This document shows positions 995 to 53,095 of a DNA stretch of 64,000 nt, one piece after another. Below the pieces are notes generated by a model. That model searched no databases. It worked only from the letters and a program-made list of their open reading frames with translations, and was not told the origin of the DNA. Source of the DNA: Euglena gracilis (lineage: Eukaryota); contig CP154954.1 of the NCBI GenBank assembly GCA_039621445.1, positions 38,177,703-38,241,702 on the forward strand, read 5' to 3'. The translations under genes were made by a program, and so were the position numbers. The number at the start of each line of letters is the position of its first letter. Positions within the stretch are counted from its first letter, which is position 1.

Positions 995-3482
995 CAGGGG
1001 AGATTCCAGCTGGTGGGTGTGCGGCCGCATCCAGTGGAACCGCAGTCTGACTGACCCAGCCAGGGAGGGGGTGGGCTGGATGGTGTGTCCGCTGGGAATG
1101 CAACCGCCTGGCTGGCTGGCGGCGGCATCCGGCTGGGGGGAAGGGCGCCAGTGGCCGGGCAGCGGCCGGGCGGCGCCGAGCAGGGCCTCCTGGCCGGGCG
1201 CCAGCCGGTGGGCGGGGCGGTCGGGGCGGTCGGGGCGGGAGGGTGGTCCCGCCCCGGCGCCGTCGTCGGCGCTGACGGGCACCGTGGCGGCCGTCGCCCG
1301 GGAGGACGTGCCGCCAGGGCGGGGGGCCGTACCCCCTCCTCGCCCTCCCCCCGGCCACCGACGGAAGCCCCAGGACGGGGGGGACCACGGCGCCGGGGCT
1401 GCCCGGGACCCGCCGCCCTGGGTGCTCTCCTGGCGCTCTCGGTCGCCCCCGGCGGCTGTCCCCCGGGGGGAAAGCATTCCCCGCCCAGCGTGCCGGCGGG
1501 CCGCGCTGTGGCTGCCGGCCTGGCGTGGGCCCGGCGTGGGCTGGCGCTGGCCGCAGGCGGGGCCAGCGCCGAGGGCTGATGGCCCCCATTCCCTCAATCT
1601 CTCGTATCAGTGGCAGGGCTTGGGGGGGGGGGGACGAGGGAGAAACAAACAAAGACAAACGGGTGCAGCGGGAAAAAAAACCAAAGCACGGAAAGGAATG
1701 GGGTCCCCATCAAAGTGCAGCCACCTTCCACCACGGCTGACACCCAAGGTCCCGAAGTGCCTGTTCTCGGTGTTAATGTTAATTATGACTGTCTCTGATG
1801 TCAAAGGCCCTATTATATGTTTTCCTCTGAGCAGTTTTGTATTTTCAAAGGTATGTATTCCCCTCATATTGTGCACAGCTTTGCATTTTTATTCAAACAC
1901 ATCAATGCGGTTTCAGGAATTTTTCATTTATTTTTCATATTTAACTTCGTCTGTGATTGTCATGAAAGAATTGTGAATAAATGCCAAATTTGAAAATTAT
2001 AGGCAGATGTACAAAAAAATGGGATAACGCCGAAATACTGTCTCCCTAAAATGAATACCTGCTGGCTCGGGTCTTCTGTTCCACCGCCACCGTCCCACTC
2101 TTGAAAGAAAATCAAGGAAAATAAATTAAGGACGTCCGATGAGAATGTCCGATTATGAGGTCCGATGTCTAAATGATGCACACCCCAGATAAAAATATTG
2201 GGGTACACTTTTTGCGAAATGCTCCGGAAAACCGGTAAGAAAATTCGAAATCTGGACGAAAAATGCGCACAAATGCACATCCTGGAAAAAATCAAAGAAA
2301 ATTGCTCAACAAATCGCCCGTTTGGGGGCACGCCTGTTCGCTTCCGCGATGGGGTCGGTTTCGAGCCGGTGCGGTGGGCCCGGGTGGGGACCCCCACCGT
2401 CCCCGGCGCGACCCTCGCCGCCGCCGCCGCCGCCGCCGCCGTGTGGGTGCCGGCCGCCACCGCCCGCAGCCCAGGGCGGCTGCCTCTGCCAAACCCTCCT
2501 GTCCTTCCCCAGAGCGGTGGCTTTCCCCAGGCTCAACAGGTGGCCAACGGGTCTGGCCGCCCAGCGCCCCGCAACAGCCCGGCCCCACAATTGGGCCTTC
2601 GGGGCGGTGAGGGGAGACGCAGCCGCCCTGCCGGAGCCCGCGGCCCGTCTCGCCCCTTCTTGGTCCCTCGCTTGATCTTCGGCGGTCGCCCCCCAGCCCC
2701 GTCGCGGCGGCGCACACCCCCGGCTCAGGCCTCAAGGGGAAAACATGCAACAAGGCCCCTCAAAATATGCAATGCAACAAATGCAAAAGAAATGCGTTGC
2801 ATGCAGTCGCTCCTTAGGAGCTGCTGTACACTTTCCTGGAGAGGACTTAGAATTTTCATCTCCTCCCGGGAATGTTTTCCAACATTATTTGCTGCGCAAC
2901 GCGGTGCACAGCATATGCATCTATAATTTGCATTTGCTACATCAGAGCTCGGTAGGGGATTGCCGCAGCAGCAAGGGGAGGATGGGAAGGCTGGGGGGTC
3001 TGCCAGTGACTAAGTCATTGTGTGGGCAGGGCAGGGCACAGCCCGAGACCCCCACCCTCAGCAGGGGTGGACGCCGGCGGCGATTGGTGGGTGCCGCACG
3101 GCCCGGGTCGCATCCGCAGAGCCACCGGCCTCGCCGCCAACAGCACGCCTGGGCTGGGGAAGGGCCACGACAGCATTCCCCAACCCATCTCCTGAAGCTG
3201 TGCATCCGTCCGCCGGGAGCATCTCTCCCGTGGAAAAGAGCAACGACACCTCGCACGGCACCAAATGCATGGGGCTCAAATGGGGTGGGCAGCTTGACTG
3301 TGGGGGTGGGCACGTCGTTGGCCGGGCACACTGGGCACCGGAGGCCGACTGGTGGAGGGCGGGGGGGGGGGGGGGGCAGCCCAGGCGTGGGAGGTTCCCG
3401 GGAAGAGGGCGGGCCGCAGAGGGATGAGCAGTGCCACCGGCACCGGGGCGGAGCTGCCGAGCGGGCTGGCGGGGACCGACTC
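995..3482 (-). CDS. Probable further GC-rich exons of the same gene (~3482-3070, ~2730-2335, 1575-995); frames uncertain
   Basis: Very GC-rich blocks preceded by minus-strand AG acceptors (3482, 2730, 1575); several frames open. Confidence 0.4.
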
Positions 3483-6400: not shown

Positions 6401-9400
6401 GAAGTTCCGTAGGAGCCAAAATAAACCCCCCCCAAATAATACCCCCCCCCAAATAATACCCCCCCCAAATAATCCCCCCCCCCCCTTGGGGTCCGACTTC
6501 GGCCGCCGAAATAATACCCCCCCCCCCCTGGTTTCGGGCCGAAGGCCCGGATTTTTGACCTGAAAATGTAGGTAAAAATCACAATTTCTGACAACAAATT
6601 ATGGAAAAAATGGATTTTTCTGGCTCATCTGACCTCCAAAAATGGTAAATTTCACAAGAAAGCGCAAAAAATGACCCCAAAGGGCGGTTTTGGGTGCTAT
6701 TTTGGGTTTTACGGGACTTCGGAAAATTTCGAAAATTTTGGAAAAATAATACCCCCCCCCAAATAATACCCCCCCCCCTCGGGCCGGGACTTCGGGCGAA
6801 AAAATAATACCCCGGGGGGGGGGGGTATTATTTGGGGGGGGTTAGCACCAAAACCCCGCTTTGGGGTCATTTTTTTGTACTCTCTTATGAAATTTAGCCT
6901 TTTTTGGAGGTCAGATGATCCAGAAAAATCGAATTTGTTGTCAGAGATTGTAATTTTTACCTACATTTTCAGGTCAAAATCCGGGCCTTCGGCCCCAAAC
7001 CGGGGGGGGGGGTATTATTTTTTCGCCCGAAGTCCCGGTCCGAGGGGGGGGGGTATTATTTGGGGGGGGGGGTATTATTTGGGGGGGGTATATTTTGGGT
7101 TTAACTTGATCATGTGTATCTTTTTGCATGTTTCATGCTGGACCTTTTTTGCATTTTATTCATTTTTGTCAATTGAGCTATAAGTGAATGTCACTTTTTT
7201 TTGTGCTTTATTTCTTCCCTCTTGCTTTCCCCCCAGAAATGATTCTCAAATTATCTTTTCTTGTCCTTTCAAATTTTGTCTGTTCTGTCCAGCATCTTCC
7301 CTTCTTTTTGCTGGAGGGGGGTTCAAGGATTCGGGGTGGACATACATGGGTGGGGGATGACCAGTCAAGGTTACATGGCTTCTGCTCACAACCCCCTGGT
7401 CCAAATTCGGGGGCGCGAATGTTTTTTTTCTGGCCCCCAAAACATTCCAAAAATGCACACACGTACGAACACACACACACACATATGCACGCACGCACAT
7501 GCGCATGCACACACATGCAAACATGTGTCAGCACACATGCACACACGCACACACGAAACACATGCACGAACATGTATGCACATGCACATGCACACACACA
7601 TATGTGCACACACACCACTGCCCGCCTCTCTGCCGTCGCCCGGCTGCAGCACTCCACCATGGTTATCACTCCATTGAGGAACTCCCCCGTTGTCGACCGC
7701 ACCGCCATTGCTGTCGCTGCCGCTGCCCCCCACCCCTGGCCAGGGCACCGGCGGCCGCCCAGGCCCGCCCGCTGGCACTGCCGCCACCGGCACGCCTCCC
7801 GCTGCCGGCCGCAGGGAGGGCCGGAGGGGGCGGGGTGGCCGCTGGGGGAAACGTTGGACCCCTCGCACCCAGGGACCACCACTGCCTCCTGCGAAAACTG
7901 CCCGCCCCTCCCTGGGCGCGGGTGCAGGCTGCGTCCCCAACGCCATGCCTGGCACACCTGTGGTGTCAGCAGCGGAAGAGAGGGGACGTGGCGATGCACG
8001 GTGAGGACCCAGAGGATGATTTCTCTCGTTTCTGGAGTTTGGCAAAATCAAAAACAAAAGGGGGAACAGTTTGGATAATTGCTTCAAAATAAGACCTCTA
8101 TGTCCCTCCCCATTATTTGTTTGTTTCGCATCATTTTGGTCTGGGGTGCCTCCCTCAGCTGCAATGGCCCACACAGCCACACCTGCCGCCCCGGGCCACA
8201 GGCCACCGACCATCACCGCCTCAACCTCCCCCTCCAGTACCGCCGCCTCCCCCTCCTCCCCGTCGTCCTCCTCCTCCTCGGCCTCGGCCTCCTCCCTCTC
8301 CGCCTCGCCGGGGCCGGGCCTTACCCGGCCCCCCTGCCGCACCCCCGCGCTGTGCGCCGGCAGGGGCGGCCCGTGGCGGCACGCCGTGAGGTTGGCCAGG
8401 CTGGGCCGGCTCCATGCATCTCTTTAAGCACCCGGGGGGGCAGGGTTGTTGGGCTGGGGCTGGGAATTTGGACTGGTGGCCTTGGGGGGGGGGGGGGCTG
8501 GACCCCAGATTTCCGATGCAAAGTGCCGGAAATTGGGGGGAGAGGATTTGAAAAAAGCCCAAAAATTGCGCTGTTTTGAAGGAAAAAAAATCGGCCAAAA
8601 TATACGCCAAAAAATCCTCTTCTATTGTGGTTGGCGTCGGAAAAAAAATTTGATCTGCTGGGGTCCCGAGCCACAGGGGCGGTGCCCCGTTACTGGCACC
8701 ATTTTTTTGACCTTCCCCCAAGCCCCGTTATTTGGGCACTACTTGCCATCATCAAACGTTGGATCCCGCCCCGATTTTTACTACTAAGGGACCCCCCCCG
8801 GGGGATAACTGGTATGCCATACACACAGATATGCATGCATTTGTATGCATGTGTTTGTATACATATGTTCATGTATGTACTCGCGGCAGGCAAGAATTGT
8901 GGAATATTTTCGTCCTCACTAACCTCTTGGACCAAAAAAAACTGAGGGTGCCCCGTTATTGGAACCATCTTTTTCGCCCCCCCCCCCCCGCCCCGTTATT
9001 CGGGCACTGCCCACTCAAAGGGCACTGCCCCGTTATTTGGCCGTTATTTGGGGGGGGGGTTACCGCAAAAATGGAATCCTGCCAAGGAGGTCACCTGGAG
9101 GAGGCTCCGCAGAGGCTCTGGGCTCCACCAAACCAGACTCCAGGGAGGCTCCCAGAGACTCAGGCAACCAATTTTGTTGACAGATTCAGCAGCACACAGG
9201 AGCTTGAGAAATTGGCCCCTACAGGGGGCACCAGCCACCCCAAAGAGCCGCCCAACTAAGGTTAATGCGCACGGAGGGACCCTGCTCGGCGCCTTCAGCG
9301 CCTCGCTCGGGTCCCCCCATGTTTTTAACCCTAGGTGGGTGGCTCTTTGGGTTCGCTGAGCACCCTGTAGTGGCCAGTCTTACAAAGCTGAGCGGGACAA

Positions 9401-11354
9401 GCTCAAATGTTTGCAGGAGAATCCTAACCCTAAACCTACTCCTTCAAATGGCCTCAAAATTCCTTTTATGTGATCGTTGTTTACAGTTTGGTGAGGTGAT
9501 GACTGAGTTGGTTACCTACTTGGAGGAGGCTCCGGGGAGGCTCCCAACCAAAAGTGAGGATTCCAAATTTTTGGGGCCCCCGGAAGGGGGTGGTCTGGAT
9601 CTGCCCCCCGGGGTCTGACCCTCTGCTCAAAACCAACGATCACTCAATTATCCGGCTGGACAATTACCCAAAAATGGAATAAGCATCTGACAACCCTGAA
9701 AAGTGCCCCCCTCCCCAAAAAGCCATTTTTGGTCCGTTTCAAAACGTCGAAAATTTTTGGTTCTTTGCAACACCATTTTTGGCCATTTTTTGAACACTTT
9801 TTCGAGAGAAAAAAACTGGTTCTTTGCAACGAAAATTTTCGGTGGACCCACCAAAGAGGGGCCAGCTGGGTTAGCAACAACCCCCCTCCCCTCCGGGAAC
9901 AGCTGGGCTGGGCCGAAATCGGGGCTGGCTGCAGCAGCCCCCCCCCCCCCGGGGGGCCTGCAAACCCCTAAAGTGATGCATGGCCGGCTCCGCACCACGA
10001 TGACGTCGTCGTCCGGGGGGACCTCCTCCGGCAGTCGCCCGGACGGCGTGGGGGTCCACTCCGCCGGCCCCGGCGCCCGCTCCCCCGCCGCCCTCCGGGG
10101 CCCTGGGGCAGAGACCAGGCGGTTCATTAAGACGGAAGGTCTTTGGACTGCCTTTGTTTGCTCACCACTTGCCCAGGGTCGGTGGAACTGAAGTCACTGG
10201 AAAAGCCTGATGGGTCTAAACAGTAAATCCAAAAAATACGGTCAATGACATGAGTTACAAGGCGGGTGTTGAAGAATGAAATTCAACTGTGACAACAAGC
10301 TGCAAAACAAACAGAGAAGAATGTCAGGCTTCTTATTTACCAACCCTGGGGGGGAGGAGGGTGCCTTGTGCTTCGGGGTGCCTGTCCCACAGCAGGCACC
10401 CTCCCCCAAGGGGGGGGGGGTCAGTTTCTGCCACCAGTGCCTGCGGGCCCAGGCAAATTTCCCTTGAAAATGGACATGCCTTTGGTGCCTGGGATGTGCT
10501 GTAGCACTGCCCCACCAAAACCCGACCCCCTGGGGGTCGGAAATGTCCTACCCACCTGCCTGCCATAGCACCCAGCCCCCCCCCCCCGGGGGGGGAGGGT
10601 GCGCACTTGCTGAAAACGAAGCCTGGAAGATAAAGAAAAACACAAAACAGAAAACAGAAACAATAGAATCAGAACGTTGAAGAAAACACTCAGGGAGGGG
10701 AAATTGATACCAAAGGCCTTCGAGAAAAAAAAATGCGGGAAAATTGCGGAAAAATTGATATCAGGAATGTACACATTTCTTCTGGAGGAGGCAAAGAAAA
10801 AAATTTACAATTTCTTCCATTTTGCAACATTAGCGTATATTTTGAGCCGTGGTTCACACGTTTTAAAACAAAAAAGCCCAAAAAAATTACTTTTGGAACA
10901 TAATTCCAAAAAAAACAGGATTTTGGGAACATACCAATTCCAAAAATATGGATTTTGCTGGGCAAAAAAAAAACGAAAATGGCGAAAAAAGATAAAAAAT
11001 TTGGTCTCAGGGAAAATCTGCTCTAGAATGAAAAATTTTTTCTAAGCCAAAATCCAAATAAACCCAAAAAAACCACACAAAGCGTGCAAATTCTGCCAAA
11101 ATTATCAAAATTCAGCAAATTTTTTTGCAAAAAAAAAAACTGCAAGAGAATAGAAAAAATTGCATTCCCTTGCAAACCATTCACAGAATGGCCAAAACTC
11201 ACTTCAGCTTCCATTCAGACTCACGCAGAAAAATTGTGGAAAGGGGGGGGAAACTGCGGGAAAATTGCGGAATATTGCAGAAAATTAAGGAAAACTGCGG
11301 AAATTGTGGAAAAATTGCGGATATCAATTCCCCCGTGACATATTACAGCACACA

Positions 11355-11398
<44 letters not shown>

Positions 11399-14300
11399 AC
11401 ACACAAGCACACACACCACTGCCAGCCGACCCCACAAGCACACTGCTGTCAGCTGCCGCCCCCATGCTGCCCTCCGTGTCCCTCTGGTGAGCAGCTCCGC
11501 CGCCTTCTGCTCCGCCACCACCGTTATCGGCGCTGCCACCGCTGCCGACCCCCGGCACCACACCAGCCCCCGGCCGCTGCGTCAGCGGTTGCCCGGCCCC
11601 ACCGCCTGGCGGCGCTGCAGCCGGTCCCAGCCCGCCTCCTCCTGCCGCTGACCGCAGGGGGGGCTGGGGGAGGGGGCTGGAGTGCAGTGGTGGCAGAGGC
11701 CTCGCCGTGTGGCCAGGCGTTTGCTGTGGCAACAACAATGGGGCACTAGATGGCGTGGTGGGCTGTGTCCTTCCCATTGCACACACCCCAGTGAAGGTGG
11801 CCAAACCCAGGGGCAGCCATGCAAATTTGCCCCTCCCTTCTGTTACAGCAGTCTTATAGCTCGATGTATTTCAGGAAAAGTTCATGAAAAAGAACTGTTT
11901 CATTCACAGCTTCTCGTCACTGCAGGAATTAGGAATGGAAGCTCTTGCACGAACGGCGGCATCATTCATCGCACCACAACCAGGGGTTTTTTTTAAGACC
12001 GGGGGGAGGGGGGGTCCCCCCGGGGGGGTCCCGGGGGACCCACAAAAAATGGACAAAAGTTGCGAAAAATGCTAAAAAAACACTTTTTCGGCGCCGAAAA
12101 GTATATCCCACCCCCCTCCGGGGGGACCCCCCCCGGGGGGGGCTCTGCCGGACCCGGGGTCCACGACTAAAAAAAAACCCCTGACCACAACACCATGGCG
12201 TTGTTTAACCCTGCTGGGGGGGGCACAGCTGGGAGGCTAAATTTCTGAGCTTCCTGGAAAAAGCTGTTGGCTGACCCCCCCCAATCAGGGCACAAGGCGG
12301 AAACTGCTCGCACCGGGTCAACAAAGGATTTTTGTGACAATTACAATGCATGACTTCCAGAACCCAAATAATGCAGTCAGGATATGCAAACTTCCTTGAA
12401 AAGCAGCCTGACAAAAAACCTCTTGAAAACATAAGAACACCCCTCTCAGAGCAAAACAGAGCTAAATGATTGTGTGTGCCTGATGCCGGCTGCAATTTTT
12501 GCTGCGGGAGAGTGGGAGTTTTGCCTTCCCTCTGCTGGGAGTTCTCTTCACTCTTGATATGTCAAAAGCCTTAATTTCAGATTGAGTAATTGCTGTTAGC
12601 TGAGGACCCAAAAACGGCCAGAATTATCAACTAAAATATAAAACCTTCCTGTTTGCCACTCATAATGTGTTCGAACCAAAATTGACGCTGTTTGCCAAAA
12701 GAAAAAGGGTGTAGACAATCAAATAAAAAAAATACACCACCCTTTGAAAAAACCCACCACCCGTTGTCATTTAAATGAAAATTTTCATACTTTCCACTGT
12801 GCTTTTTATTCCAGATATTCCAGAATATTCTGGATATTCCAGAAATTTCTATTCTGGTTTATTCCGGTTTAATCAGGACTGGAATATTGCCCATGTTCAG
12901 GGGTCAAAAATGGTTTCAAATGCGCACGATGACATCATTCTTTCTGTTGCGGGGTGTCACAGAGTCTTTAGAATGGGGAGTAATGATGGACAACTTGCCA
13001 CCGAACTCAACTGGTAATTTGTGGCAATCCTCCTGTGTTCTTTACTGCCCTCATCAACCACCAGCAGCAGAGTTCTCTAACAGCCCATTTCTACCTGGTT
13101 TATTTGTTTGCATGTAAAATTTCCACTGCATTTTGCGACCAACTTCAAGAACCTCCACAACATACCACAAGGATTCAGAAAGCAAGCAAAGGGGTGGACC
13201 TGTTACCCCATCTCCAGAACACCACCTGCCACTGGCAGGTGTCGCACAGGAAAAAGGAGGTGCAGGGACCGGGGCTTTCGTGCATTTTTGGCAAATTTCT
13301 CAATTTGGGGAGGTCAGTCCCGGGGGTTTCACAACTCAGCAACGTGCTCTGGAGGGTCAAAACATCAAACTTGCACAATGCCCCCCAGGGTGGTGTGCCA
13401 CCACTGAAAAGTTGCAAGCATCAACAAATGGAGGGATATGGCATATCACAACCAGCTCAAAAACCTGGACCCCAACCATCAAAAACAAAAGGTTCAAAAT
13501 CTGCAGATCTATGTTGCTGCACCGCCGAAGTTGATGCCCTCCAGAGCGCTGCCCACCCCAAAGGCCTCCTCCGGGCCCTCCCTGGGCGTCGGTGCAAGCT
13601 GTGATTCCCACGCCGTGACCGGTGTGCCTGTGACGGTGGGCACGCCGGCGGAAGACAACCATTAAACCCCAAATAAACCCCAAGGGAGAAAGATAAAGAA
13701 GGGGGAGGTTGAGGTGTTTTGCAAATTTCTGTCACCGCATTCTTTTGGGTTGATTTGTGGCGGATCTCTTCCTTTTGTCTTTTGGTGCATCACACGCATG
13801 AAACGACGTGCTGAATGTCAACTTCTAATCCACCCCACTTTTTCACCCCCTTCTCAAAGCTAACGCCAGCAAAGCTAACACCAGACCTACATCCCTGCGT
13901 TGTCCCTCCATTTAAGTGCACGGGGTGCGTACATTACTGGACCGAAGTTTTGGACCCTCACGGGCGTGACACTTATTTGGACACTGCACACCATTTGGGC
14001 ACAGTGCACTTTAATGGAGGGTGTAAACTCCCCCCCAAATATAAAGCTCGCCCAAATATAAAACCCCCCAGGGATGAGCTTTGCCACCCGAAACAAAGCA
14101 CCCCCCACCAATGCAAATCCCGCCGATGGTGAAATTCAGGAAAAGGAAGAAAAATCTTGGGTGAATGCAACAATTTTTCACCAGAAATTCTCCAGTTTGG
14201 ACAAAAGCTGCACATTTTGGGGGAAAATGGGGATACACAACGAAAATTCGTTAAAAATTGGCATTTGATTACAGTTGAAGCCCGCCACAGTATGTATTGG

Positions 14301-17300
14301 CCACCGGGAAAAGTTTGATTCCCCCCCCCCAATATAAATCTCCTTCCTGGGGGTGTTGAAAGCCCACCCAAATACAGGTCGAATTCACTAAAAAAGTACC
14401 CTCACCCAGTTCACAAAAAAATACCCCCCCCCTGGATGAAATACCTGCAACAGCAGAATAGACACCCCTGATCAACCTGCAACATTTCATTTACCCTCTC
14501 AGCTTTTCTTATGCCCCACAAACTGACCCCGGAGGCCCGTGAGGCTTTGAGGGTGCGGGTTGAGGGATATCTGTGCCAGAATCCACCACTTTCATATGGT
14601 GCCATCATGAAGCTGGAAAATATTTCAAAGAGTACCGTGCAAGGTATGCTCGCATGCAGCCTGTTCATTCCCTTTAATTGGTGACCCTTTCAGGAATGGC
14701 CACGAGGTTCAAATTGAGAGGTACATTGAAGCGAAAAGCAGGAACTGGACTAAAACAAAAGAAATCAGAAGTTTACACATCCAGGTGTGTTTGCAACGCG
14801 AGTAAAATTAGCTACATCTGTCCCTCTGTTCTTAGGTTTCGTCGGCAAATGATCCAACTTGCCCTCAAAAACCCATTTTGGGGGTCCCAGAAAATTGCAA
14901 ATGAGTGGTACACCAGCACAAGAAATGCATTGTTCAACCGCCCACCTGGTGCCGTTGTTCAGGTTTGATGTTATGAAAAAGCAATCCCTTGGGCTTTTAT
15001 CCGCACAGGTGCCACCAAAACCCTCAGCTTCTTTTGTGCGAAGTCTTCTGAAGAAAGGTAGCATGTGCTCTGTTCCGGCTCACCGAAAACCCCTGCTATC
15101 CGGAGGAACAAAAGGATCCGCTTGGACTTCGCCAGACGGCACCTCAGTTTCAATTGGAAGAAAGTCATTTGGTCTGATGAAAAACTTTTCAAAGTTTGAC
15201 CTATGGGGAAAATCAGGTATAGCAACAGGTGACGCCATCTCCCTTTCAATCCACTAACCTTTTGCAGATGTTGGGTCAAAGAAGGCACCAATCGTTACCT
15301 CCCCCAATACATCATTCCGACAGTCAGCCACCCTGAAGGAGTCATGGTGTGGGCAGCCATGTCTTATTCGGGAGCAATCTGCATCAGACGTTGCCCAACA
15401 AATATTGACCAGGTTGAGTACCAACGCATCCTTGGGACTGCCTTAGGATTCATCCGTAGAAGGTGTGAGGGGTTTCTGAATTAGCTTCCTTGTGCACTTG
15501 GCACACCCGCAGGTGCCAAGTGCAAGAGCGCCACCACACAGGGCCTTGTCAACTACAACCTGGCTCCGGCGGAGGAGGATCGAGCGGCTCAACGGAGGGA
15601 CGTGGCCTCCACAATCTCCGGACATGAATCCCATTGAGCACCTGTGGCCAATGGTTCTAACCAAGCTCCGTGGGAGCGTCTTTGCAGGCAAAGACCAACT
15701 GTGGTCAGCTCTGCAGTGCGCTTTTGCTGAGATCACCCCTGAACAAGTACGAACGTTGTATCATAGCATGCCTAATCGCATGAAGGCAGTCATTGCATCG
15801 CGTGGAGGACACACCCGTTATTAGCGTGTGCCAGAGAGGCACAGTGCACCCTCGTCACTGTTCTGTTGCATTGGCATCGCATTGGTAAAGAAAGGTCCGG
15901 ACATTCTGCTCCTCTGCAATTGCAGGTATTTCATCCGGGGGGGGGGGGTATTTTTTTTGTGAACTGGGTGGGGGTACTTTTTTAGTGAATCCGACCTGTA
16001 CAAAGCTGGGGTGCTTTCTTTTTTAAAAGGGGGTTAAACTGCGGGAGCACTTGGAGTTCTGACATATCACCTCAGGCTGACAGAAGCACAGGATCCACAC
16101 CTGCCACCCCGGGCCATGGGCCACCGACCATCACCGCCTCAACCTCCCCCTCCAGCACCGCCACCTCCCCCTCCTCCCCATCGTCCTCCTCCTCCTCGGC
16201 CTCGGCCTCCTCCCTCTCCGCCTCGCCGGGGCCGGGCCTCACCCGGCCCCCCTGCCGCACCCCCGCGCTGTGCACCGGCAGGGGCGGCCCGTGGCGGCAC
16301 GCCGTGAGGTTGGCCAGGCTGGGCCGGCTCCATGCATTTCTTTAAGCACCCGGGGGTCCCAGTCGTGAAAGCCGAGCCCCACAAGTTGCATTTTGTCACG
16401 TTAACGGAAAGCCCACGCTTGTCAGCATCACGGATGAGAGTTCCGATGATATGTATGCAGTTGCGATGCAGATTCCATCAAATGGAGGTTCGGTACATCT
16501 GACGAAGGCCCTCAGCCACCATTGGGGGGGGTACCCATCATACAATTGCTTACCGACCCCCGGGGGGGGGGGGGGTCACTCCACTTTTTTAAAAACCAGT
16601 CAGTCACTCATTTTCAAAAAATCAGCCAGTCACTCCCCCCCCCCCGGGGGGGGGGGGGGGTCGGCCACTCAGAAAAACGGCCACTTTCCAGTCACTTTAG
16701 GCCATTTTAGGCCAAAAAAAATTTTTCCGGCGCCTTCGGCGCCGGGGTCACTCAAGCCACTTTTGCCCACTCCTGGCCGACCCCCCCCCCGGGGGGGGAG
16801 GGGGTCCGGGCCCAAAACCAGTCAGTCACTCTGAAAAAACCAGTCACCCACCCCCGGGGGGGGGGGGACAGTGCTTAAGCAATTGTCTGGTACCCATTTT
16901 GCTGTGTCAGCGGGCTAGGGCTAGAAATTTGCCCTGAGCCTGGGGGGAGGGCTGCAAATGTGCAGCCCTGGCTGTATCTTTGCAGGGCCGGGATGGGCAG
17001 GGTGTTAAGGGAGCAGGTAGGGGTGGTGGGACGGGACCCCCTTCTCCCTGAACAAAAATACTTTCGGCACAAAATGCGGAAAATTTTGGGGGGAGCTTTT
17101 AAAAAAAAAAAAGCCCAAAAAAGCGAGGATTTGCACGTTTTTAGAAAAAGCAGCCAAAATGCCAACAAAAAAAATTATCTTCTCAAGCGAAAAAGGTTGG
17201 AGATTATTATCATTGGTTCTGGGGCAGGGCGGTCCTTAAGCAAAAAAAAAAAAAATCCCGTCCCGGCACAGCCGAGAAATTTTTTTGAAAATCCATGACC

Positions 17301-20300
17301 GAAAAGTGGTCGTATATTGCCCGAAACGGGTCGACTTCGGGAAAAAAAGTGATTCCTGGCACTTTTGGAACATCGCCCATCCGCCCATAGCGTCAAAAAA
17401 TGCGTTTTTCGACTTTTTGGTTTTCGACCCCCGTTCAAGTCCCGGTCGATCCTTGGTCGGGGGGGCGGTCCTTAAGGGGCGGTCCTTAACGAAAAAAAAA
17501 AAACTTCCCGTCCCTTATGGACCGCCCTGTTCTGGGGTCCCCGTCTGGACCCTCCTCCGGGGTGTCTTACCTCCCCCCCCCCGCACAAAACCAATTCGCT
17601 CAATTCGCTTAATACTGCGGCTGGGTCAAATGGGATAATTACTCAAAAAATGAACAGCAAAACACAGCTTTTGAAAAATAAGAGCATCTGACAGCCCCAA
17701 AAGACCCCCAAAAAGTGCCACCCACCCCCAAAAAACCATTTTTGGCCATTTTTGAACACTTTTTCGAGAGAAAAAAACTGGTTCTTTGCAACGAAAATTT
17801 TCGGTGGACCCAGCAAAGGGGGGCCAGCTGGGTTAGCAACAACCTCCCTCCCCTCTGGGAGCAGCTGGGCTGGGCCGAAATCGGGGCTGGCTGCAGCAGC
17901 CCCCCCCCCCGGGGTCTGCAAACCCCTAAAGTGATGCATGGCCGGCTCCGCACCACGATGACGTCGTCGTCCGGGGGGACCTCCTCTGGCAGTCGCCCGG
18001 ACGGCGTGGGCGTCCACTCCGCCGGCCCCGGCGCCCGCTCCCCCGCCGCCCTCCGGGGCCCTGGGGCAGAGACCAGGCGGTTTATTAAGACGGAAGGTCT
18101 GGACTGCCTTTGTTTGCTCACCACTTGCCCAGGGTCAGTGGAACTGAAGTCACTGGAAAAGCCTGATGGGTCTAAACAGTAAACCCAAAAAATACGGTCA
18201 ATGACATGAGTTACGAGGCGGGTGTTGAATCTCACTTGCAAAAAAATAATGCAACATGCTACAGAACAAAAAAGATGAAAAAAAACAGAAACAGCAACAG
18301 CAAGAGAATCAGAACGACAACGCAAAAAAAACCTCCACGCATGCACACACACACACACACACATCCATACACAAGCACACACACCACTCCCAGCCGTCCC
18401 TACCAACGCACTGCTGTCAGCTGCCACCCCCACGCTGCCCTCCGTGTCCCTCTGGTGAGCAGCTCTGCCGCCCTCCGCGTCTATGGGCGCGTCCTCTGGC
18501 CGCCGCCCCGGTTTGGGCGTCCACTCCGCCGGCCCCGGCGGGCGTTCCCCCGCCAGCTGGTGGGGCTCTGGGGCGGGAAAAGCCAGCGTGGCAACGATGC
18601 GAACCGAGAGAAGGGAACTCCCGCAGACGCCTGTCAAAATAACTACCTTTGACAGCGTTCAACGTTCCAAGGTTTGTGTGCGAATGAGAATCCCCCACTC
18701 CCAACCCCCATTCCGGAAGCGGCGTTTGAGACGGACCTGTAAAGCTGTGGGGAAGGGACATACAACCCTGCGGGCTTCGGGTTGTGGCGGGCCCCCAGCA
18801 CCAAACAGGGGGACTTAACAGTGGCCATTGTCATGGGAAATTTACCTGTTTGATCCTGTCCAGAACCCAAAACCGACCTCGGGGAGTTTGCATCCCCCTC
18901 CCCAGGGTGTTGAATGCAGCCCCCTCCCCCCCCCCCGGAGGTCTGGATCTAGGCACATTGGGTGCCAGCCCAGGCAGGTGGGATACAGTTGGCGTTGGCA
19001 ACCCGTTAAAATATAAAATTTATTCAGCCATATAACACATCCAAAATGCAAATATTTTTCAGCGCAAATCTCAGAAAATAGCCCACAAAGAGATCCCCCA
19101 AAAGCAAACTTCACCAAAATTGGAAAAAAGGAGGAAAAGCTGCAAAAAAGGGCGGCTGGATGGTAATAGATTTCGCTTTCGGGGGTACAAAGGTGGGCCA
19201 AAAATGGGCCAAAATGGGTCAAAAAATGGACGAAAATGGGTCGGAAAAAAGCTGTCCAGGACATTTTGGGGGGTAAAAAAAATGTATTTTTTGAATAGTT
19301 GGCAATTTTTTGGACACTTTTTTGCGATTTCGTTGTTTTTTTTTGGTTCTCAGTTTGACCCCAGGTCGGGCCCAGCTCCAGCCTGGGACCCTTATGGGGG
19401 GAGGGTGGGGGGGCGGGGCCATCAGCCTTTTTCCAGCCAGCACAATTTTTCCAGCCTCTGAGCTGGACCGGGGGGGGGGTCCTTGAGCAGTGCCCTGGTC
19501 CGCCCCTTTCTTACCCATTTTTTTTGAAAATTCCAGAGAATTTTTGCAATTACACTTGTTTTCTGCTTTTGTGCTTTTCAAGGCTGGGGCTTCTTGAAAA
19601 GATTGTTTTATTTTTTCCATGGGGGTTACAACAGGGATGGCACCCAGACATCCCAGGATGGAAAAAGGCTGCTGGCTGGAAAAAAGTTGCTGGCTGACTG
19701 GACCCCCCTGGGGCAGGGCAGAATGGGAAGGCCTGGTGGGGGGGCCCCCCCCCCCCCCGCCCACCACAGCATTTTCACTGATTTCGGGAAAACGGGGATT
19801 TTGGCCGGAAAATTTTTGAAAATTTTCTTTGAAAAAGAAACCCAAAATACATGGTTTTTTGATGGAAAACCACATTTTTTCACAAAAAAATATCAAAAAT
19901 TTCAGGGTTAAAAATTGGTAGTTTTTAGGAGGTCCAAAAATTGGTCCAAAAAATTCGGTCCCGGAAATACGGGAAGAGGTGGTGGGGGGGGGGTCGACCC
20001 CCCTCCACCCACCACCCTGGCTGTTTGGCCAATTCCCGTTCTGCCCTGCCCTGGGGGGTGGGGTCGAAATTTCTTAAACAACGCTGTGTGGAAAAAAGTG
20101 CAAAAAGCTGCGTGGGAAAAAAAAATCGACAAACCACCAGAAAAGGATTTTCGCAGTTTGGAACAGTGCAACGAACTAAGAACCCTCAAATTGGAAAGTT
20201 TGGGTCCTGTTCAATAAAAAGTGCCATGTCTGTTCGTAACGGTGAAGCAAGGAGAGGCACATGTTAGCAGGTGCTGATGGATGACTACACTGCTGCAGGG

Positions 20301-35300: not shown

Positions 35301-38211
35301 TTTTCGACTTTTTTGACCCGGTTTTGACCCAAAGTCAATGGGTTGGCGCCGGCGGGTCGAAAAACGCTCGTTTTCGGCTCAAAAACAGTTTTTCCGGGTC
35401 CGGGAGGCCCAAAAACGTCGTTTTGGGCAAAATTTTTTTGATTTTTTTCGACTTTTTTGACCCGGTTTTGACCCAAAGTCAATGGGTCGGCGGCCCAAAA
35501 CGGGGCGCTGGGGGGGTCGAAAAAACGCTCGTTTTCGGCTCAAAAACAGTTTTTCCGGGCCCGGGAGGCCAAAAAACATCGTTTCGGGCAAAAAAAATTT
35601 TTTTGATTTTTTTCGACTTTTTTGGCCGAAAACGGCCAAAGTCGAACAGTGGAAAAAGTGTACAAAATGGCCTAAAATGGCCTAAATTGGCCGGAAAACG
35701 CCCGTATCTCGGGCTACGCGGGGAGTTGTGGAGAAACCATAATCCCAGTACGTAGAGCGTCCCAGGGGCTTCAATTTAGGTCTCTGGACATTTCCTTTGA
35801 TTTTGCATCATTTTCGAGAAATTTTGAAAACATTGGTTTTTTGACCCCCCACCCCCCGAAAACGGCTATGTCGAACAGTGGGAAAAGTGTACAAAACGGC
35901 CATCTGGGCCAAAAACGGCCGTATCTCGGGCTAGGCGGGAAGTTGCGGGGAAATCAAAATACCAGTAGATGGGGCGTTCCAAGGGCTTCAAATTAGGTCT
36001 CCGGACATTTCCTTTGATTTTGCTTCATTTTGGAGATATTTTGAAAATTGACATTTTTTGGCCGAAATGGCACAGTCCAAAGGGGGGGGGGGCTTATCCA
36101 GGCGGGGCGGGTAAATCCTACCCAGTTTGGACCCCTTGGGAACCGACGGATTATCACCATGATCCCGGCCCGGTTCCCGGATTTTTTTTTCTTCAGTCGC
36201 GAGCGACTGGATTCCTAGTTTCCGAATCACCCGGAGTTGACCCCCAACTCCCCGCCAGGCCCGAGTTATTCACGCGCGAAAATGCACATTTTTGCCCTTT
36301 TTTTTGAAATTTTCCAAAATATGCACTTTTGCGCTTTTCTGTATATTTTTGCTTTTTTTCCAGCAGTTTTTTTTTGGGAGGTTTCGCACCCTCATTCTTG
36401 TTGCGCAATTTTGTGGCTTTCCCAATATTTCCCAATTTTGTCCATTTGGCATTTTTCCATTTTTTTCGGAATTTTTTTGAGAGTTTTAATTTTTTTCAAA
36501 ATGAGATTTCTCATATTTTCACATGATTTCTTTCAGTAATATTTGTGCCATTTTTTTTGCATGGTTTTGATAAATTTTGCAATTTCGTGTTTTTTTTTGC
36601 ACTTTTTCTGTCAAATTTTTGCACATTTTGGGCAAAGGGCTCATTTTTTTCCATTTTTGTGTTTTTTTTTGAAGGTTGGGACATTTCCCCGGATTCCTTT
36701 TTTTGGCAAACAGGGGGCTATTTTTGGACAAACCAAAAAAAATAAACTCGTAGCACCAAGAGGTGTGAGGTGATCAAACCAAAGCCAGTGAGATCTGTGA
36801 CATTCGCGGACACTGGTCAATCAAGAATCAATGCAAGGGAGGAAATTTAAGAGTAATTTTTTTCCACAGGCCTGGATCACTGGCCTGATGTGTTGTGGCA
36901 TGGACTCAAACAAAATGTGCTTAACAGTGGCGAAGGCAGATTGCAACAAACACCTTCCCAACAGGGATAGCCCCAAACCAGGGGTAATTTAGTGGAGGGG
37001 GGGGGTAGGGTGGGTCCCTTGGACCCCCTCCCCCCCCCCGGGGGGTGGGGGTAGGGGCTGGTGGGCAGGGATGGATGGGAAGCCCTTTGGTATTGAGGTA
37101 GGTGGTAGGGGGGGGGTCGCTGAGCTCTTATCCATTTATGGGTAAGAGCGAAGTTTACCACCGGCGAAACCCCCCCTCATGCGCAGAAAGTGTTCTGCGC
37201 ATTGACTACTGTCCGGTGCTACACCAGCCGTCGGGCAGAGTCCCCTGCTCCCCAGGGGGGAGGGGGCTGAAATAATGTTGTGCAAACCCATGCCCAGCTT
37301 TGAATTGAATTTTTTTGAAAATATGCAGGAAGCACTTGTTTCCCCTGTTTTTGTTCAAGACGTCTGCACACACGCACGCACGCACGCACACCGCTCCCAT
37401 GAGTGAACCCTCCTCTCTCACCCGTCCGCACCACTGCACTCCGCTGCCCATCTCCGCCCCCGTCTCCGTCGCCACCCTCGCCGGTGATGGGGTCAGTGCT
37501 GCGTCCTGGCCACTGCACCGGCGGCTGCCCCGCCCCACCGGCTGGCGGGGCTGCCGCCGCCCCCGGCACGCTCCCCACCGCCCGCAGGGAGCGTTGTGGG
37601 GGTTGGGGTGCCATGGGGGGAATGACCCCGCCAGGCAGTGTGGTCGAAAAAGTCTCGTCCCTCCCTCCCGTCCCCCCGCTGCGCAGCCTCTCCCTGGGTG
37701 CGAATGCCTCGTCCATCCTCCTGGGGGTGCCCGGCGCAGCTGCGAGGAGGTGCAGAAAGAGAGGGCGGAATGGCGGTGAATGAAGGGTCCGCCAAATACA
37801 GCACAAACCCTGCGACTGATTGCACACGTGAGGTTCATTGGGCCGGCAAGGCCAAAGAAGACAAAAGTTTTGGCAGGTGCAGTTGTTGCAGTGACAGTGA
37901 AGCCGCTGCCCCCCCCCTCTCCGCCCGACCAAATGCAGCCAAGTTCCTTAACCCAGATTTCCCCAAAATTCGGGGTGGAGCTTCCGGGGCCCACTCAATT
38001 AGGACCCCTTGCCCCATTGCTGCTCGGTGGCTTGGCTTGAGCTCAGAGCCAAAACAAGACTTGTTAGAAACCAGAAAATTTTCGCGGAAGCACGCCAAGA
38101 TCGTAACGACAACTTATATCCCAGGGTTCCCCAGAGACTTGTGCTGACGACTTTCACCAGCCAACGAATAAAAAAAACAAAACAAACAGGTGAGAAAATG
38201 GGATGAAAACC

Positions 38212-38294
<83 letters not shown>

Positions 38295-41200
38295 CAGAGA
38301 AGCTGCACAGGAGATGGCGGAGAGGATGTGATGGAAAGACTGGGGAGGGTTGATCCCACCCACCACCCATGGGTTTTGGGGATGCCATACAGCTTGCAGA
38401 GAGGGCAAAAAGGAGAGTAAGTGTCACCCCCTTTCTTTTGGTTTTTTTGTTTTTCCCTTTGAAGCAGGCATTTGCTTAAGGACCCCGGGACTCACTTAAT
38501 CGTGCTGGTTCGCGATTATTCGTGTCACTGGGAAACCCTGGGCGCAGTAAATGACACTGCACATATGCGTACCGCCGCCCTTGCTCAGCTGCGATGTGCC
38601 GCCCTCTGCGCTGTTCCGCTGAGCAGTGCCGGCTCCGCCCGCTGCCGTACCAGAGCTCTCGCCGTCAGCACTGACCCCACCACCACCAGGCACCTATAGT
38701 CAAGCCCCGAAATTTTTCCATTTTAAGCCATTTTGACCTGTAGGTGGGGGACCATAACTTCGAAAAAGAATTATTTAGACCATAACTTTGGATCTCCATT
38801 CAAGAAAGCACACTGCACATCCTCGTTCAGAGCCCTTCAATTACCTTCACACTTTCTTCATCTGAATAACTGCAATGGGAAATGGCTGGACCAACCTGAT
38901 GGCCGATTTTTTTTGCAAATATTGCAACAAGAACAGCAAAGCAAACAATATAAAACAACAGCGACCTGTGTGCTTATCCAGAAGAGAGGCCCAACAGTCC
39001 TTTGTTGCGGTAAGCAAATGCAAGGGTTCGAGGATAGCCTTCTTTGCTTTTGATTATTATTTTGATAAAGCTGCTCGATTGTTTTGGAAAAATACACAAC
39101 AGCACGAACCTAAATGCAATAAATCTGAAACAAATTCGCACATCCAAAAGCATTGGACACATCGTTTGGGTTTAATAAAAATTTTCACAGAAAACAGGAA
39201 CTGTGGGAGGAAAACAATCCATACCGACAGACAACGGTGGCCTTGCTGTGCTCCTCCACCATCGTCCAACGGTCACAAAAAAATTACTTCTTGCGGAAAA
39301 AAATTCTCATTTCAGGCCACGTTAGGCCAGTTTGGGCCATTTCAGCTCTAGGTGCCTGCCCACCGCCGCTCCCCAGGGCGGAGCTGCCGCCGCTGCTCGA
39401 CCCAGGGCGGTACACCGGCAGCCGCCCAGTCCCGCTCGCCTGCGACGCTGCAACCGCCGGCGGCGCGCCCCCCGGCCCTGCTGGCCACAGGGAGCAGCGG
39501 CCGGGGGGGGAGGGGAGGCACCACAATGCCCGGGCACCCGTTCTCTGGAGAATTCCTGGCAGGAAAGCAGCCCCGTCACCCGGCCACAGCCTGCGTTGCG
39601 GCTGCCGAGCATGGCAGGGTGACGACTGGTAGCCGGGAGAACCGACCAACCCGGCCCCACCGGCCCCCTCCCTTTTGCAGGGCTCCGGTTCCTCCCTGGG
39701 TGTGGGCATATGCTCCACGCTCCACGCAGTGCCAAGCGTTCCTGCGATGGCAACCAGCGCATGAGGGGGGGGGTAGCAGCACACAAGACACCCACCCGAG
39801 AACAGCAAATGTGCTACATGAAGATGGGGAGAGTGTTGGGGGATTGGCAGGGAAATCAACAAAGTGGGAGGGGAGGGTGCCCGCCCCTCCCCTCCTACGG
39901 AGAAAAAAAATGGGACAAAGCACAGGAAAACTCTTGCCCAAAATGCTTTAAAAATACAAAATAATTATACCAAAAAATACGTGCCGAAAAAAATTCGCCA
40001 GAACCCTCCCCCTGAGGAAAAACAAAGCCAACGCACGCTTTACACCCAGGTGGAAAAGCTTTCAGCTCCGCAAAATGTGGGGGACCCGGCTATTGGTTGA
40101 TGGATCATGTCAATGGCCCAGTAATCTGACTATTTCTTTGCCACACTGGCACACAGGCAGCCACCAGCCAGCGCCACACACCTGCCGCACCGTACCGGAG
40201 GCTGGAGCCCTCTCCCTCCCCCTCCCCCTCCAGCACCGCCTCGTCCTCCTCCCCCTCCTCCTCACCGTCGTCCTCTTTCTCCGTGTGGCTGGAGACGCCC
40301 ACTGCGCCAGAGCCGCCGGGGCCGGGCTGCACCCGGCCCCCCTGCCGCACGCTGCCGTGCGCCGGCAGCCCGTGGCGGTTCGCCGTGAGGTTCGCCACGC
40401 TGGGCCGGCTGCGCACCACGATGACGTCGTCGTCCATCGGGAGCTCCGCCGGCAGCCGGCCAAACGGGGTCGGCGCCGGGATCCAAAGCCCTCGTTTGCC
40501 TCCGGCGTCCCCTGGGTGTGGCGGCAAAGGACCCAAGGACGAGCCACACGACGGCGGGGGAGCACTCACACGGTTCTGCTTCCCCAGTCACATACCGGTG
40601 CTCTGCCATCGCATGGACGTTGCCTCCACCGCGGCATATCCAGGGAAGGCTTCTTTTTACCAACCCCAAAGGGAGGGCAGTGCAATGGGGTGCCTGTGCA
40701 AAGCAGGCATTTACCCCAAAACCCAACCCCTCGGGAGGGGTCAAAAGTACCGTCCCCACTGGCTGCCCGCAGCACCCCCCTGATGGGGGGCAACTTTCCT
40801 TAAAGAGAAGCCTGGTCCGGGGTACTCAGCCCCGTCCGCTGCGCCGCGCAGGCCCCGGAACGCCACCGGCCGGCCGGGGCGCCTCTTGGGGTGGGTGGGG
40901 AAGAAGTCGTCCATGGCGACGAGGGCCTCCTTCGGCAGCGGGGCGGGCGGGGTGGCCGCCAGCTTCCAGGAGGCGAAGGGGCTCATCCCTGGGGGAGACG
41001 GGGGGCTGCCGGCAACACAGCAGAAGGGTGTTCCGGTGTTCCGGCAAAGTGCTCGGAACTCTACCATACCCGAGGAGGAGCAAATGCTCGAGTGCGGGCA
41101 CAGCACTCCAGCGTCCAGGCCACGGCACACCAGGGGTTGATGGGGCAGCGCTCCCCGGGAGACCGGTGTGCCCGGCGGTGCCTCGAGGGGTGAGGGACGA

Positions 41201-49255: not shown

Positions 49256-49318
49256 GGCTGTGAAGGGCGTTTTAGAAACACGTTTTAGCATAATGCAAAC
49301 GTGTCACAAAAAAGTGTT

Positions 49319-49516
49319 AACACGCTTTCCGTAAATGTACACGTGTTACCAAAAAAGTAAACACGCTTTCCTGCAGTGTACACGTGTTACCAAAAGGAGT
49401 AAACACGCTTTCCGTACAATGTACACGTGTTACCAAAAAAGTAAACACGCTTTCCTGCAGTGTACACGTGTTACCAAAAGGAGTAAACACGCTTTCCGTA
49501 CAACGTACACGTGTTC
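49319..49516. repeat. 42-bp tandem repeat (~4.7 units, alternating A/B variants)
   Basis: aacacgctttcc at 49319, 49360, 49402, 49444, 49486; each unit contains acacgtgt. Confidence 0.9.
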
Positions 49517-49694
49517 CAAACACGGTACATTTGCATTGTACCGTGTTTGTAACACGGTACAATTGCATTTACCAAGGTACCCCATTTTTGTACACGTGTT
49601 TACTATAATCGGCATTTTTTGCGCGAATCACGTGGACGTGAACACGGTTTTCACTACCGGTGTACATCGTGGACTCTTAACACGGTTTCAACAT

Positions 49695-51086: not shown

Positions 51087-52441
51087 GCAGTTCTCGAATC
51101 TGCTTTTCCATCCATCCACCCTGGCCAGGCCTGCTGCCACGTCAAGCCTAGCATATGTGACACACAACTTTTTTTTGTGATACATGATGGACATTTTTTT
51201 TGGGTGATACACACTTAATGAATCAACCTTGACCCCATGCCCCCCTCCCACGATACGAGACACCGAACCTTGTCCATGGCCCTCCGGAGTCCCCCCCTAA
51301 ACCCAGGTAGGGGGGAGCGACATAACAATGCTATATATGTGTGTACATTTTGACATATTTCATATGTAGTCCAGTGTAGTTCATTTTTGGACCCCCAACC
51401 CCCTTGTCCAGTTCAGTTCCTGGCTCTTCCAGGGGGGTTCATAGGACCCACCCAGCGCCTGACCGGACAGGTGTATTTGCCAAAAATTGACCCCAAATGG
51501 CCGAATGGCCAAAGTTGCCCTTATTTGCAAAATTTTTAACCCTCCCCCCCTATCAGTTGAGTTCGCCCAAATCTACACGGGTCCAGTCCCCCCCCCAAAT
51601 ACCTAGCCTCCCTTGGTGATGAAGACAGCAAAAAAAAAACAGCAAAAGCACACCTGCAAGGAGCTTTGACGCATCCTCATTCCTGCATGGTAAAAAAAAA
51701 AACCCTACAAGAACGATGGGGGGTGTCCGGACCCCCCCCTCCCGCGCCCCAACCTCCCTCTCCCCACACTGTGCCCAGCTTCCCCAAGAAAAAAAAAACT
51801 CGAAAAAATCGCGACTTTTTTTAGGCTAAAAAATAGCCCAAAATGACCGTTTCAGGGAAAAAATGGCAATTTTGGGGGCCGCGCGCTTGGCGTGCGGCCC
51901 AAAAAGCATTTTCTTTTCATCAAAAATGGTCCAAAAATGGCCGAAAAATGACCACTTTGGACCCCAAAACCACCGATTTCAGGACGCGTGCTGCCCGCGC
52001 GGCCGCCCTCGGACGCCGCCGCTCGCCCCCCCCCCCACCATGCCAAGCCTCCTGAAGGGCAATGCCTCGTTATTTGGGGGGGTTTACATTTTTTGTCAAC
52101 ACCTTTGATGATAACTTTTGGAACCGCCTCCCTGTATAATTTTTCTTATTTTTTTTGAACAAAGCAAATAATGAGTGGGCAGTGCCCAAATAACGGGGCG
52201 GGGGGGGGGGGAAGGCCGAAAAAGATGGTTCCAACAACGGGGAACCCTCAGTTTTTTTGGTCCAAGAGGTTAGTGAGGACGAAAATATTCCACAATTCTT
52301 GCCTGCCGCGAGCACATACATGTACATGTGTATACAAACATGCATGCATATCTGTGTGTATGGCAGGGATTTACCAGTTATCCCCCTAGGGGGGTCCATT
52401 GGTAGTAAAAATCGGGGCGGGATCCAACGTTTGATGATGGC

Positions 52442-53015: not shown

Positions 53016-53095
53016 TGATCAGAGTGGAATTTGAACCCACGCCCCCGGAGACCAGCATTTGAAGCTGGCGTCTTTGACCACCTGACCATCTGACC
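53016..53095 (-). tRNA. tRNA-Leu(CAA)-like gene (functional, pseudo-tRNA or SINE head)
   Basis: Acceptor GGTCAGA/TCTGATC+A; D arm GTC/GAC; anticodon arm CCAGC-TTCAAAT-GCTGG; short variable arm; T arm GTGGG-TTCAAAT-TCCAC; followed by TTTT. Confidence 0.7.

Follow-up and report, generated by a model that had tools for sequence, protein, structure and literature searches.

A probable transposon-derived nonconventional intron in a Euglena gracilis tandem gene family and a possible relation between its 3 + 5 cut geometry and 8-bp target-site duplications

In a 64,000-nucleotide stretch of Euglena gracilis DNA (GenBank assembly GCA_039621445.1, contig CP154954.1, forward-strand positions 38,177,703 to 38,241,702; this whole stretch is referred to as the window and is numbered from its first letter), a 672-bp non-autonomous element bounded by terminal inverted repeats (TIRs) splits a probable exon of paralog E, a member of a tandem gene family. 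The interval 38682-39361, made up of this element and eight flanking nucleotides, is a probable nonconventional intron of transposon origin, predicted from sequence. We propose that an old non-autonomous cut-and-paste DNA transposon of the class producing 8-bp target-site duplications (TSDs), hAT-like by its CAG...CTG ends, entered the glycine/serine-rich linker of a “block 2” exon. Its ends and flanks match the published splicing code in full (3-nt spacer, CAG, termini pairing over about 12 bp, CTG, 5-nt spacer, purine), and the pre-mRNA would then lose the element plus exactly one copy of the 8-bp duplication, restoring the pre-insertion frame. The 3 + 5 geometry of splicing would thereby mirror the 8-bp stagger made by the transposons from which the introns arose. 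As a whole, this explanation (transposon insertion, a predicted 680-nt nonconventional intron, and 3 + 5 equal to the duplication length) appears fairly likely to us.

The first-pass annotation had described a 672-bp insert with TIRs and flanking 8-mers matching at six of eight positions, and our analysis found the same element at 38687-39358. Its TIR is 13 nt long and 92% complementary, and the arms match without a mismatch over their first 10 nt (CAGGCACCTA). The identity between the flanking 8-mers ACCACCAC and CCCACCGC (6/8) is reached or exceeded by 2.0% of 8-mer pairs when all 14,400 pairs from the two local flanks are compared. The GC content is 0.42 within the element versus 0.62 and 0.78 in the 200-nt flanks, with the shift located exactly at the repeat ends, and short subterminal repeats of the GGCC(A/T) type are present. 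The calculated terminal RNA duplex of the two TIR arms has an energy of −23.7 kcal/mol, compared to −14.2 ± 2.9 kcal/mol for shuffled sequences. An internal open reading frame (ORF) of 161 aa gave no Pfam match. We consider it very probable that the element is a transposon insertion of the 8-bp-duplication class.

Nomura et al. 2025 (PMC12501133) derived the code 5'-N3CDG...CH'GN5-6|R for euglenid nonconventional introns. Knock-ins in E. gracilis showed that the 3-nt donor spacer is strict, that the 5-nt acceptor spacer may be lengthened to 6 nt, and that CAG, CTG, terminal pairing and a purine at the start of the downstream exon are each required; fully synthetic 50-bp introns made to this code get spliced (PMC12501133). 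The same source places 61.2% of nonconventional introns under the CDG/CH'G code; for E. agilis, it counts 71.8% of all introns as nonconventional and finds 69.1% of the latter to be “slidable” through junction repeats (PMC12501133). The placement of CAG at +4..+6 and of CTG at −8..−6, which the first-pass annotation had given as established, agrees with the published papers.

Cutting the minus strand at 39362|38681, with 3 nt left ahead of CAG and 5 nt behind CTG, takes out 680 nt. The joined product (...SALGSGG|GGVSADGESS...) is open and fuses the frames of ORF 39287-39964 and ORF 38496-38693, which reproduces the junction of the first-pass annotation. On the donor side, the sense strand reads ...GGCGGT|GGG CAG, with a 3-nt spacer and the in-frame junction at 39362. 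On the acceptor side it reads CTG GTGGT|G, and the frame is kept only by the 5-nt spacer, as a 6-nt spacer would remove 681 nt. The downstream exon starts with a purine (base 38681 is C on the plus strand and G in sense), and the 12/13 match of the TIR corresponds to the required terminal pairing of about 12 nt. As far as the letters can tell, every cis feature of the published Euglena code (N3-CDG...CH'G-N5-6|R) is present in the element and its flanks. That the 680-nt interval leaves the RNA as a nonconventional intron is our prediction, held with slightly more confidence than doubt.

The host is member E of a lineage-specific, real tandem gene family on the minus strand. In this family, a “block 1” exon (...PTPPGRLPEEVPPDDDVIVVRSRPSLANLTASRHGPP...) occurs five times (paralogs A, B, C, D and E), and at least one block-2 exon lies downstream of block 1 in each gene. 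The two halves of the split block-2 exon in E align with the first and second halves of eight paralogous exons. These share the pattern PSL(R)xAAGGVP...GG(A)GRPPVxRPG, a G/S-rich linker and SADNGG.GAEGGG...GGV.QPG...GSG|GT. The host exon (39362-39800 and 38573-38681) is classified as a putative exon solely from its similarity to the paralogs, and it would presumably be transcribed. The family motif (...GTAW..PREE...) reaches upstream of the acceptor proposed at 39741, and the host exon therefore probably begins further 5'. Colinearity with the paralogs, as claimed in the first-pass annotation, was reproduced at the protein level, but the predicted junction falls in the length-variable G/S-rich linker, so that comparison with them determines the phase but not precisely how many bases are removed.

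The block-1 exons are 96-97% identical among A-D, and E is the most diverged paralog, being 76-79% identical to the other four copies. When E is aligned with A-D, there are five gap blocks, each of 3 or 6 columns (alignment count). Codon changes in block 1 show a synonymous to nonsynonymous ratio of approximately 1:1 and an excess at third positions. The acceptor of the exon (...CCCCAG|) is C-rich, and its donor reads CAG|GTGTGG. Between C (23198-23557) and D (27475-27834), the 97% identity is confined to the block-1 exon and ends where the exon does, a pattern suggesting that the exon is strongly constrained or subject to gene conversion and that the introns turn over rapidly. Block-2 exons end in GSG|GT followed by a (GT/CA)n-type microsatellite (at 7470-7610, 11349-11450 and other exon ends), and ORFs that read through this microsatellite acquire “VCVCVC” tails. 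Another microsatellite, a perfect (ATG)27 at 38212-38292, lies downstream of the host exon in the sense direction, at a distance of about 280 nt, and translates into poly-His, poly-Ser or poly-Ile in the minus frames and into poly-Met or poly-Asp in the plus frames.

A different insertion was found in the block-1 exons of paralogs A and B, where one and the same event interrupts the codons VVRSRP|SLANL and is flanked by a perfect 8-bp TSD (Table 1). A single copy of the target without an element is present in C (23431-23438), D (27708-27715) and E (40404-40411). When the element and 8 nt are deleted in silico, A and B become colinear with the other three paralogs and share their reading frame. 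A and B, which both carry the insert, differ by five synonymous and four nonsynonymous codons, and C and D, which lack it, differ by six and five. The similar A/B and C/D divergence is consistent with continued function, although it rests on few differences and could also be due to gene conversion. The inserts of A and B have only 26 nt in common at one end and 214 nt at the other, and their interiors (8439-9768 and 16357-17731) are unrelated. A nested repeat in the A insert (8745-9017) recurs at 52172-52441, and one in the B insert (16539-16889) recurs at 24712-25047 and 26953-27239.

To survey 8-bp duplications across the window, perfect flush direct repeats flanking a TIR of at least 10/12 were scanned for without fixing the terminal letters. 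Arrays at 7470-7610, 30856-32150, 35045-35830, 49276-49520, 57541-57853 and 58122-59004 were masked, and low-complexity or dinucleotide-repeat 8-mers and TIRs were dropped as well. After masking, the numbers of flush perfect repeats were 9, 2, 7, 0, 2 and 0 for repeat lengths (k) of 6, 7, 8, 9, 10 and 11, respectively. At k = 6, five of the nine are inner parts of 8-mers, and both cases at k = 10 are an ambiguous extension of one 8-mer. At k = 8, six of the seven are real elements, all with CA..TG ends, from five insertion events; the seventh (6390-6731) is a palindrome artefact. Before the filters, the raw counts at k = 8 were 14 for AA..TT, 8 for GG..CC and 11 for CA..TG. Controls with displaced repeats were not independent: elements with long TIRs reappear shifted inward, and the long palindromes at 6284-6847 add self-complementary 8-mers. 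A reversed-sequence control was invalid and was left unused, as reversal preserves both inverted and direct repeats.

CAG...CTG pairs with a terminal complementarity of at least 11/12 were also collected (86 listed, 85 on recount), and 60 of them were not of low complexity. Flush 8-mer flanks matching at 6/8 or better were seen in 5 of these 60 versus 0.7 expected from 40 shifted registers, and perfect flush 8-mers in 3 versus 0 expected from the same registers. The elements with CA...TG ends belong to different families. Those at 17225-17529 and 16539-16889 are nested inside the B element (16331-17940). Three copies of the R1 family were seen, which occupy separate sites and differ in their flanks; the second copy (24712-25047) has a TSD of 7/8, and the truncated copy starts at 26953. 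Different families, nesting and R1 copies at separate sites are transposon behaviour. It is well supported at the DNA level that CA(G/T)...(C/A)TG elements in this genome make 8-bp duplications.

Two elements do not fit the proposed rule. The one at 5766-5927 (162 bp) has a perfect 8-bp duplication, AACTTAAT (5758-5765 and 5928-5935), but its TIR starts with GTTCAGGG..., with CAG at +4..+6, 3 nt inside the terminus; it is therefore a counter-example to the notion that CAG is always the transposon end. The other, at 55710-55978 (269 bp, CAGGGTTG...CAACCCTG), is flanked by a flush 7-bp repeat, CAAGGAA, and not by an 8-bp one. A 3 + 5 cut would not seamlessly erase either of them, and both are exceptions to the rule at the DNA level.

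Some other features of the window were noted. A possible further element at 45448-46206 has CAATTGG...CCGGTTG ends, a TIR of only 8/12 and a perfect 8-bp repeat, ACTGGCAG. Large imperfect palindromes or foldbacks at 6284-7099 and 30856-32150 have arms of 150-270 nt that are 83-92% identical, and these give rise to self-complementary “pseudo-duplications” in repeat scans. A tRNA-Leu(CAA) gene (53016-53095, minus strand) lies inside a local palindrome, and the CAG..CTG inverted pairs near it (52918/53092 and 52943/67) have inverted rather than direct flanks. A 165-bp tandem array at 58122-59004 (5.4 copies, 98% identical) is located within a proline/threonine-rich ORF (57958-59148, plus strand) for which no Pfam match was found.

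Table 1. Features of the window discussed in the text (strand “.”, no strand assigned).
Feature	Position	Strand	Remarks
672-bp non-autonomous TIR element	38687..39358	.	CAG...CTG ends; GC 0.42; no transposase-size ORF
TIR arm, left	38687..38699	.	CAGGCACCTATAG; inverted repeat analysis
TIR arm, right	39346..39358	.	CTCTAGGTGCCTG; 12/13 pairing with left arm
Flanking 8-mer, left	38679..38686	.	ACCACCAC; putative degraded TSD
Flanking 8-mer, right	39359..39366	.	CCCACCGC; putative degraded TSD
Predicted nonconventional intron, 680 nt	38682..39361	-	From sequence, frame join and published code; sense GGG-CAG...CTG-GTGGT, then exon base G
Putative host exon, upstream part, block-2 type, paralog E	39362..39800	-	5' limit uncertain
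Putative host exon, downstream part	38573..38681	-	Ends at GT (38572-38571), like the GSG|GT(G/A)... ends of paralogous exons
Block-1 exon, paralog E	40165..40475	-	...DDDVIVVRSRPSVANLT...; empty target GCCGGCTG at 40404-40411
Element in paralog A, 1570 bp	8413..9982	-	CATGCATC...GATGCATG; perfect 8-bp TSD GCCGGCTC at 8405-8412 and 9983-9990
Element in paralog B, 1610 bp	16331..17940	-	Same insertion event as in A; TSD GCCGGCTC at 16323-16330 and 17941-17948
Element, 159 bp	2472..2630	.	CAGGGCGGCTGC...GCAGCCGCCCTG; TIR 12/12; TSD 7/8 (CCGCAGCC / CCGGAGCC)
Element, 203 bp	11981..12183	.	CAGGGG...CCCCTG; TIR 12/12; perfect 8-bp TSD ACCACAAC
R1 family element	16539..16889	.	CATACAATTGCTTA...TAAGCAATTGTCTG; perfect 8-bp TSD GTACCCAT
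Element, 305 bp	17225..17529	.	CAGGGCGG...CCGCCCTG; perfect 8-bp TSD TTCTGGGG; nested in the element of B
Element, 335 bp	19714..20048	.	CAGGGCAG...CTGCCCTG; perfect 8-bp TSD CCCTGGGG

A number of observations weigh against a predicted intron of transposon origin in a working gene. The TSD of the 672-bp element is only 6/8 and lies in a GGN-repeat context. No second copy of the element was found in the 64-kb window by blastn, which leaves its membership of a repeat family unproven, and a 20-nt end of it had no match in metagenome contigs. The minimum free energy fold of the whole intron leaves the two ends unpaired (z = −0.79), a result that is uninformative at a length of 700 nt. There is no codon-position GC periodicity in the host exon, and none of the family exons yielded a Pfam domain in a scan of 18 window ORFs. 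The only Pfam matches, EzrA (15.1 bits) and GOLD_2 (15.3 bits), were far below the cut-off and were discarded. A search for proteins resembling the upstream exon in a library of 1.84 billion representatives returned only P0001, which was judged spurious, being a tandem-repeat ORF with 16 matched stretches. In an index of 5.8 billion clusters, the upstream exon (at near lengths) and block 1 (at near and longer lengths) gave no match; and when the block-1 alignment was compared with the metagenome, none of 590 pattern matches was confirmed. The CAT...ATG ends of the A/B element fall outside the CDG/CH'G code, although they fit the older CA...TG consensus of nonconventional introns (PMC3935182).

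Several of these points would also be expected if a transposon had inserted into a decaying or silent paralog, so that the element stays in the RNA and the frame is a leftover of the old exon combined with the chance openness of GC-rich sequence. This is in line with E being the most diverged paralog, with protein searches that returned no transcript-derived product, with the lack of third-position GC periodicity, and with a TSD that has drifted to 6/8; moreover, the 486-nt host exon alone was open by chance in 12% of Markov simulations. However, the maximal joined ORF (786 nt) was open in only 0.6% of them, and the gap blocks between E and A-D in block 1 are all of 3 or 6 columns. The ends of the element still satisfy a code that is sufficient for the splicing of synthetic introns (PMC12501133), and the first 10 positions of the TIR are perfect despite changes at two of the eight TSD positions. 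We regard a silent paralog as unlikely. Alternatively, the ordinary spliceosome might remove the interval, together with some exon codons, via a more distant GT...AG pair, with TIR and TSD being irrelevant. The first-pass annotation had argued that the nearby GT...AG pair leads to a premature stop. This is correct for the nearest pair (donor 39363, acceptor ending at 38694, 670 nt), which gives GSGGAWWWWGQC* with the stop within 10 codons, but 27 of the 78 GT..AG pairs lying no more than about 100 nt away preserve both the phase and an open frame. Open-frame logic thus excludes the nearest pair only and not conventional splicing generally, and the block-1 exons of the family do have conventional-looking sites. 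Against removal by the spliceosome, most of the 27 candidate acceptors are preceded by purine-rich sequence and lack the C-rich tract of the block-1 acceptor, a tract that has also been described before acceptors for E. gracilis (PMC11170887). In addition, each of these alternatives deletes 14-65 codons, including motifs common to the paralogs. Splicing through a distant GT...AG pair is, in our view, distinctly improbable.

The broader proposal of the first-pass annotation, that 3 + 5 = 8 reflects the removal of one TSD copy, is supported in part; its further suggestion that exonic insertions could thereby be near-neutral is a conjecture. The arithmetic holds, and so do both premises, the 3/5 spacers and the 8-bp duplications; the two exceptional elements described above do not fit. 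Its novelty is lower than had been implied, as a MITE (miniature inverted-repeat transposable element) origin and TSD-like junction repeats have already been published. A MITE origin was proposed in a 2013/2014 paper, according to which no transposable elements had by then been identified in euglenid genomes (PMC3935182), and a review depicts CAG/CTG as TIRs and treats the repeats at the junctions as TSD-like (PMC11282704). Eight-nucleotide direct repeats were reported at a newly gained nonconventional gapC intron in one strain of E. agilis (PMC4770533). With the 3/5 spacers, the ingredients are thus in print. An explicit statement that 3 + 5 equals an 8-bp duplication, or an assignment to hAT, was not found in the full-text literature searched, in which supplements and subscription papers were not visible. 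The interpretation is a synthesis of mostly published facts, and the window adds new DNA-level support for the transposon half of it. The authors of the gapC study interpreted their repeat as a product of double-strand-break repair (PMC4770533). If this applied to the 8-nt junction repeats of young nonconventional introns in general, then the transposase stagger would not be their source and 3 + 5 = 8 would be no transposon signature. In the window, however, the 8-bp repeats flank sequences with TIRs of 10-19 nt, some insertions are nested, and the repeated R1 family has three copies at different sites with their own flanks. Break repair as the general source is very improbable on this evidence. 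For 3 + 5 equal to the TSD as the general logic of nonconventional introns, we find the balance even or tilted a little in its favour.

A further step would be to view euglenid nonconventional splicing as an RNA-level form of precise excision matched to CAG...CTG transposons with 8-bp duplications, whereby the TIR helix is read and the cuts are made 3 nt upstream and 5 nt downstream, inside the duplication copies. The element and one duplication would leave as a circle, the junction of which re-creates the 8-bp target. To this view we give as much credence as doubt. If true, it would account for the “slidable” nature of most such introns and for the survival of exon insertions such as those at 38687 and at 8413/16331 in paralogs that are conserved in other respects. 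The nonconventional share of 71.8% of E. agilis introns would be explained in part as well. Families whose duplications are still perfect would then point to a recent or continuing supply of new introns.

For the questions of how euglenid nonconventional introns arose and why they are cut with a 3/5 geometry, the window supplies concrete candidates: several families that have CAG/CAT...CTG/ATG ends and make exact 8-bp duplications; one insertion within a conserved exon, the target of which is empty in sister paralogs; and an older copy (38687-39358) that agrees base for base with the splicing code established by experiment. If 3 + 5 is the duplication length, a transposase stagger would explain the geometry of the RNA-processing enzyme. 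Such a rule would also imply that the sliding range is at most 8 nt, that the circle junction is the target 8-mer, and that 7-bp or 9-bp duplications lead to frameshifts.

Compared to the euglenid nonconventional introns already described (Nomura et al. 2025; Milanowski et al. 2014, 2016), the 680-nt interval is within the published size range, but its excision is a prediction. In the present case, the intron can be read directly as a TIR element plus one 8-bp duplication, which the literature, with its TSD-like repeats and MITE-like origin, suggests only loosely. The C-rich CAG acceptor of block 1 and the many CAG..CTG TIR elements are in themselves indirect hints of a euglenid host.

The elements of the window resemble non-autonomous hAT elements and MITEs in their 8-bp duplications (putative, at 6/8, in the 672-bp element), short TIRs beginning with CAG and subterminal repeats. 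They are also similar in being 150-1600 bp long, nested and without coding capacity. None of the 18 ORFs scanned contained a transposase domain, and no autonomous partner was seen, the window not having been scanned exhaustively. The consensus for hAT ends is YARNG. It fits the CAGGG elements at 2472, 11981, 17225 and 19714, whereas the 672-bp element, with CAGGC...GCCTG, has C at position 5; this element also lacks the multiple dispersed copies of a hAT-like MITE, as judged in the 64-kb window and in metagenome contigs. P-like elements have 8-bp TSDs and CATG ends, and a P-like affiliation of the CATGCAT element is an alternative to a hAT-like one that has to be kept in mind. The Merlin transposons of E. 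gracilis have in common with the window elements that they make 8-bp duplications in a euglenid genome (PMC8101967). An affiliation with Merlin was rejected, as Merlin TIRs end with 5'-GG and the window elements end with CAG/CAT flush with the duplication.

The maize Ds element can reportedly be spliced out as a de novo intron. In contrast to Ds, removal here would use a dedicated non-spliceosomal system and not cryptic GT/AG sites. The case is also similar to the introner elements of Micromonas, dinoflagellates and others, in which insertion creates the intron and the duplication contributes to exact removal (PMC11282704). Introners, however, use spliceosomal GT/AG signals and 3-5-nt duplications (PMC11282704), whereas the TIR helix is the proposed signal here, and the cut sites, unlike those of introners, are predicted to lie inside the two duplication copies, 3 nt in one and 5 nt in the other.

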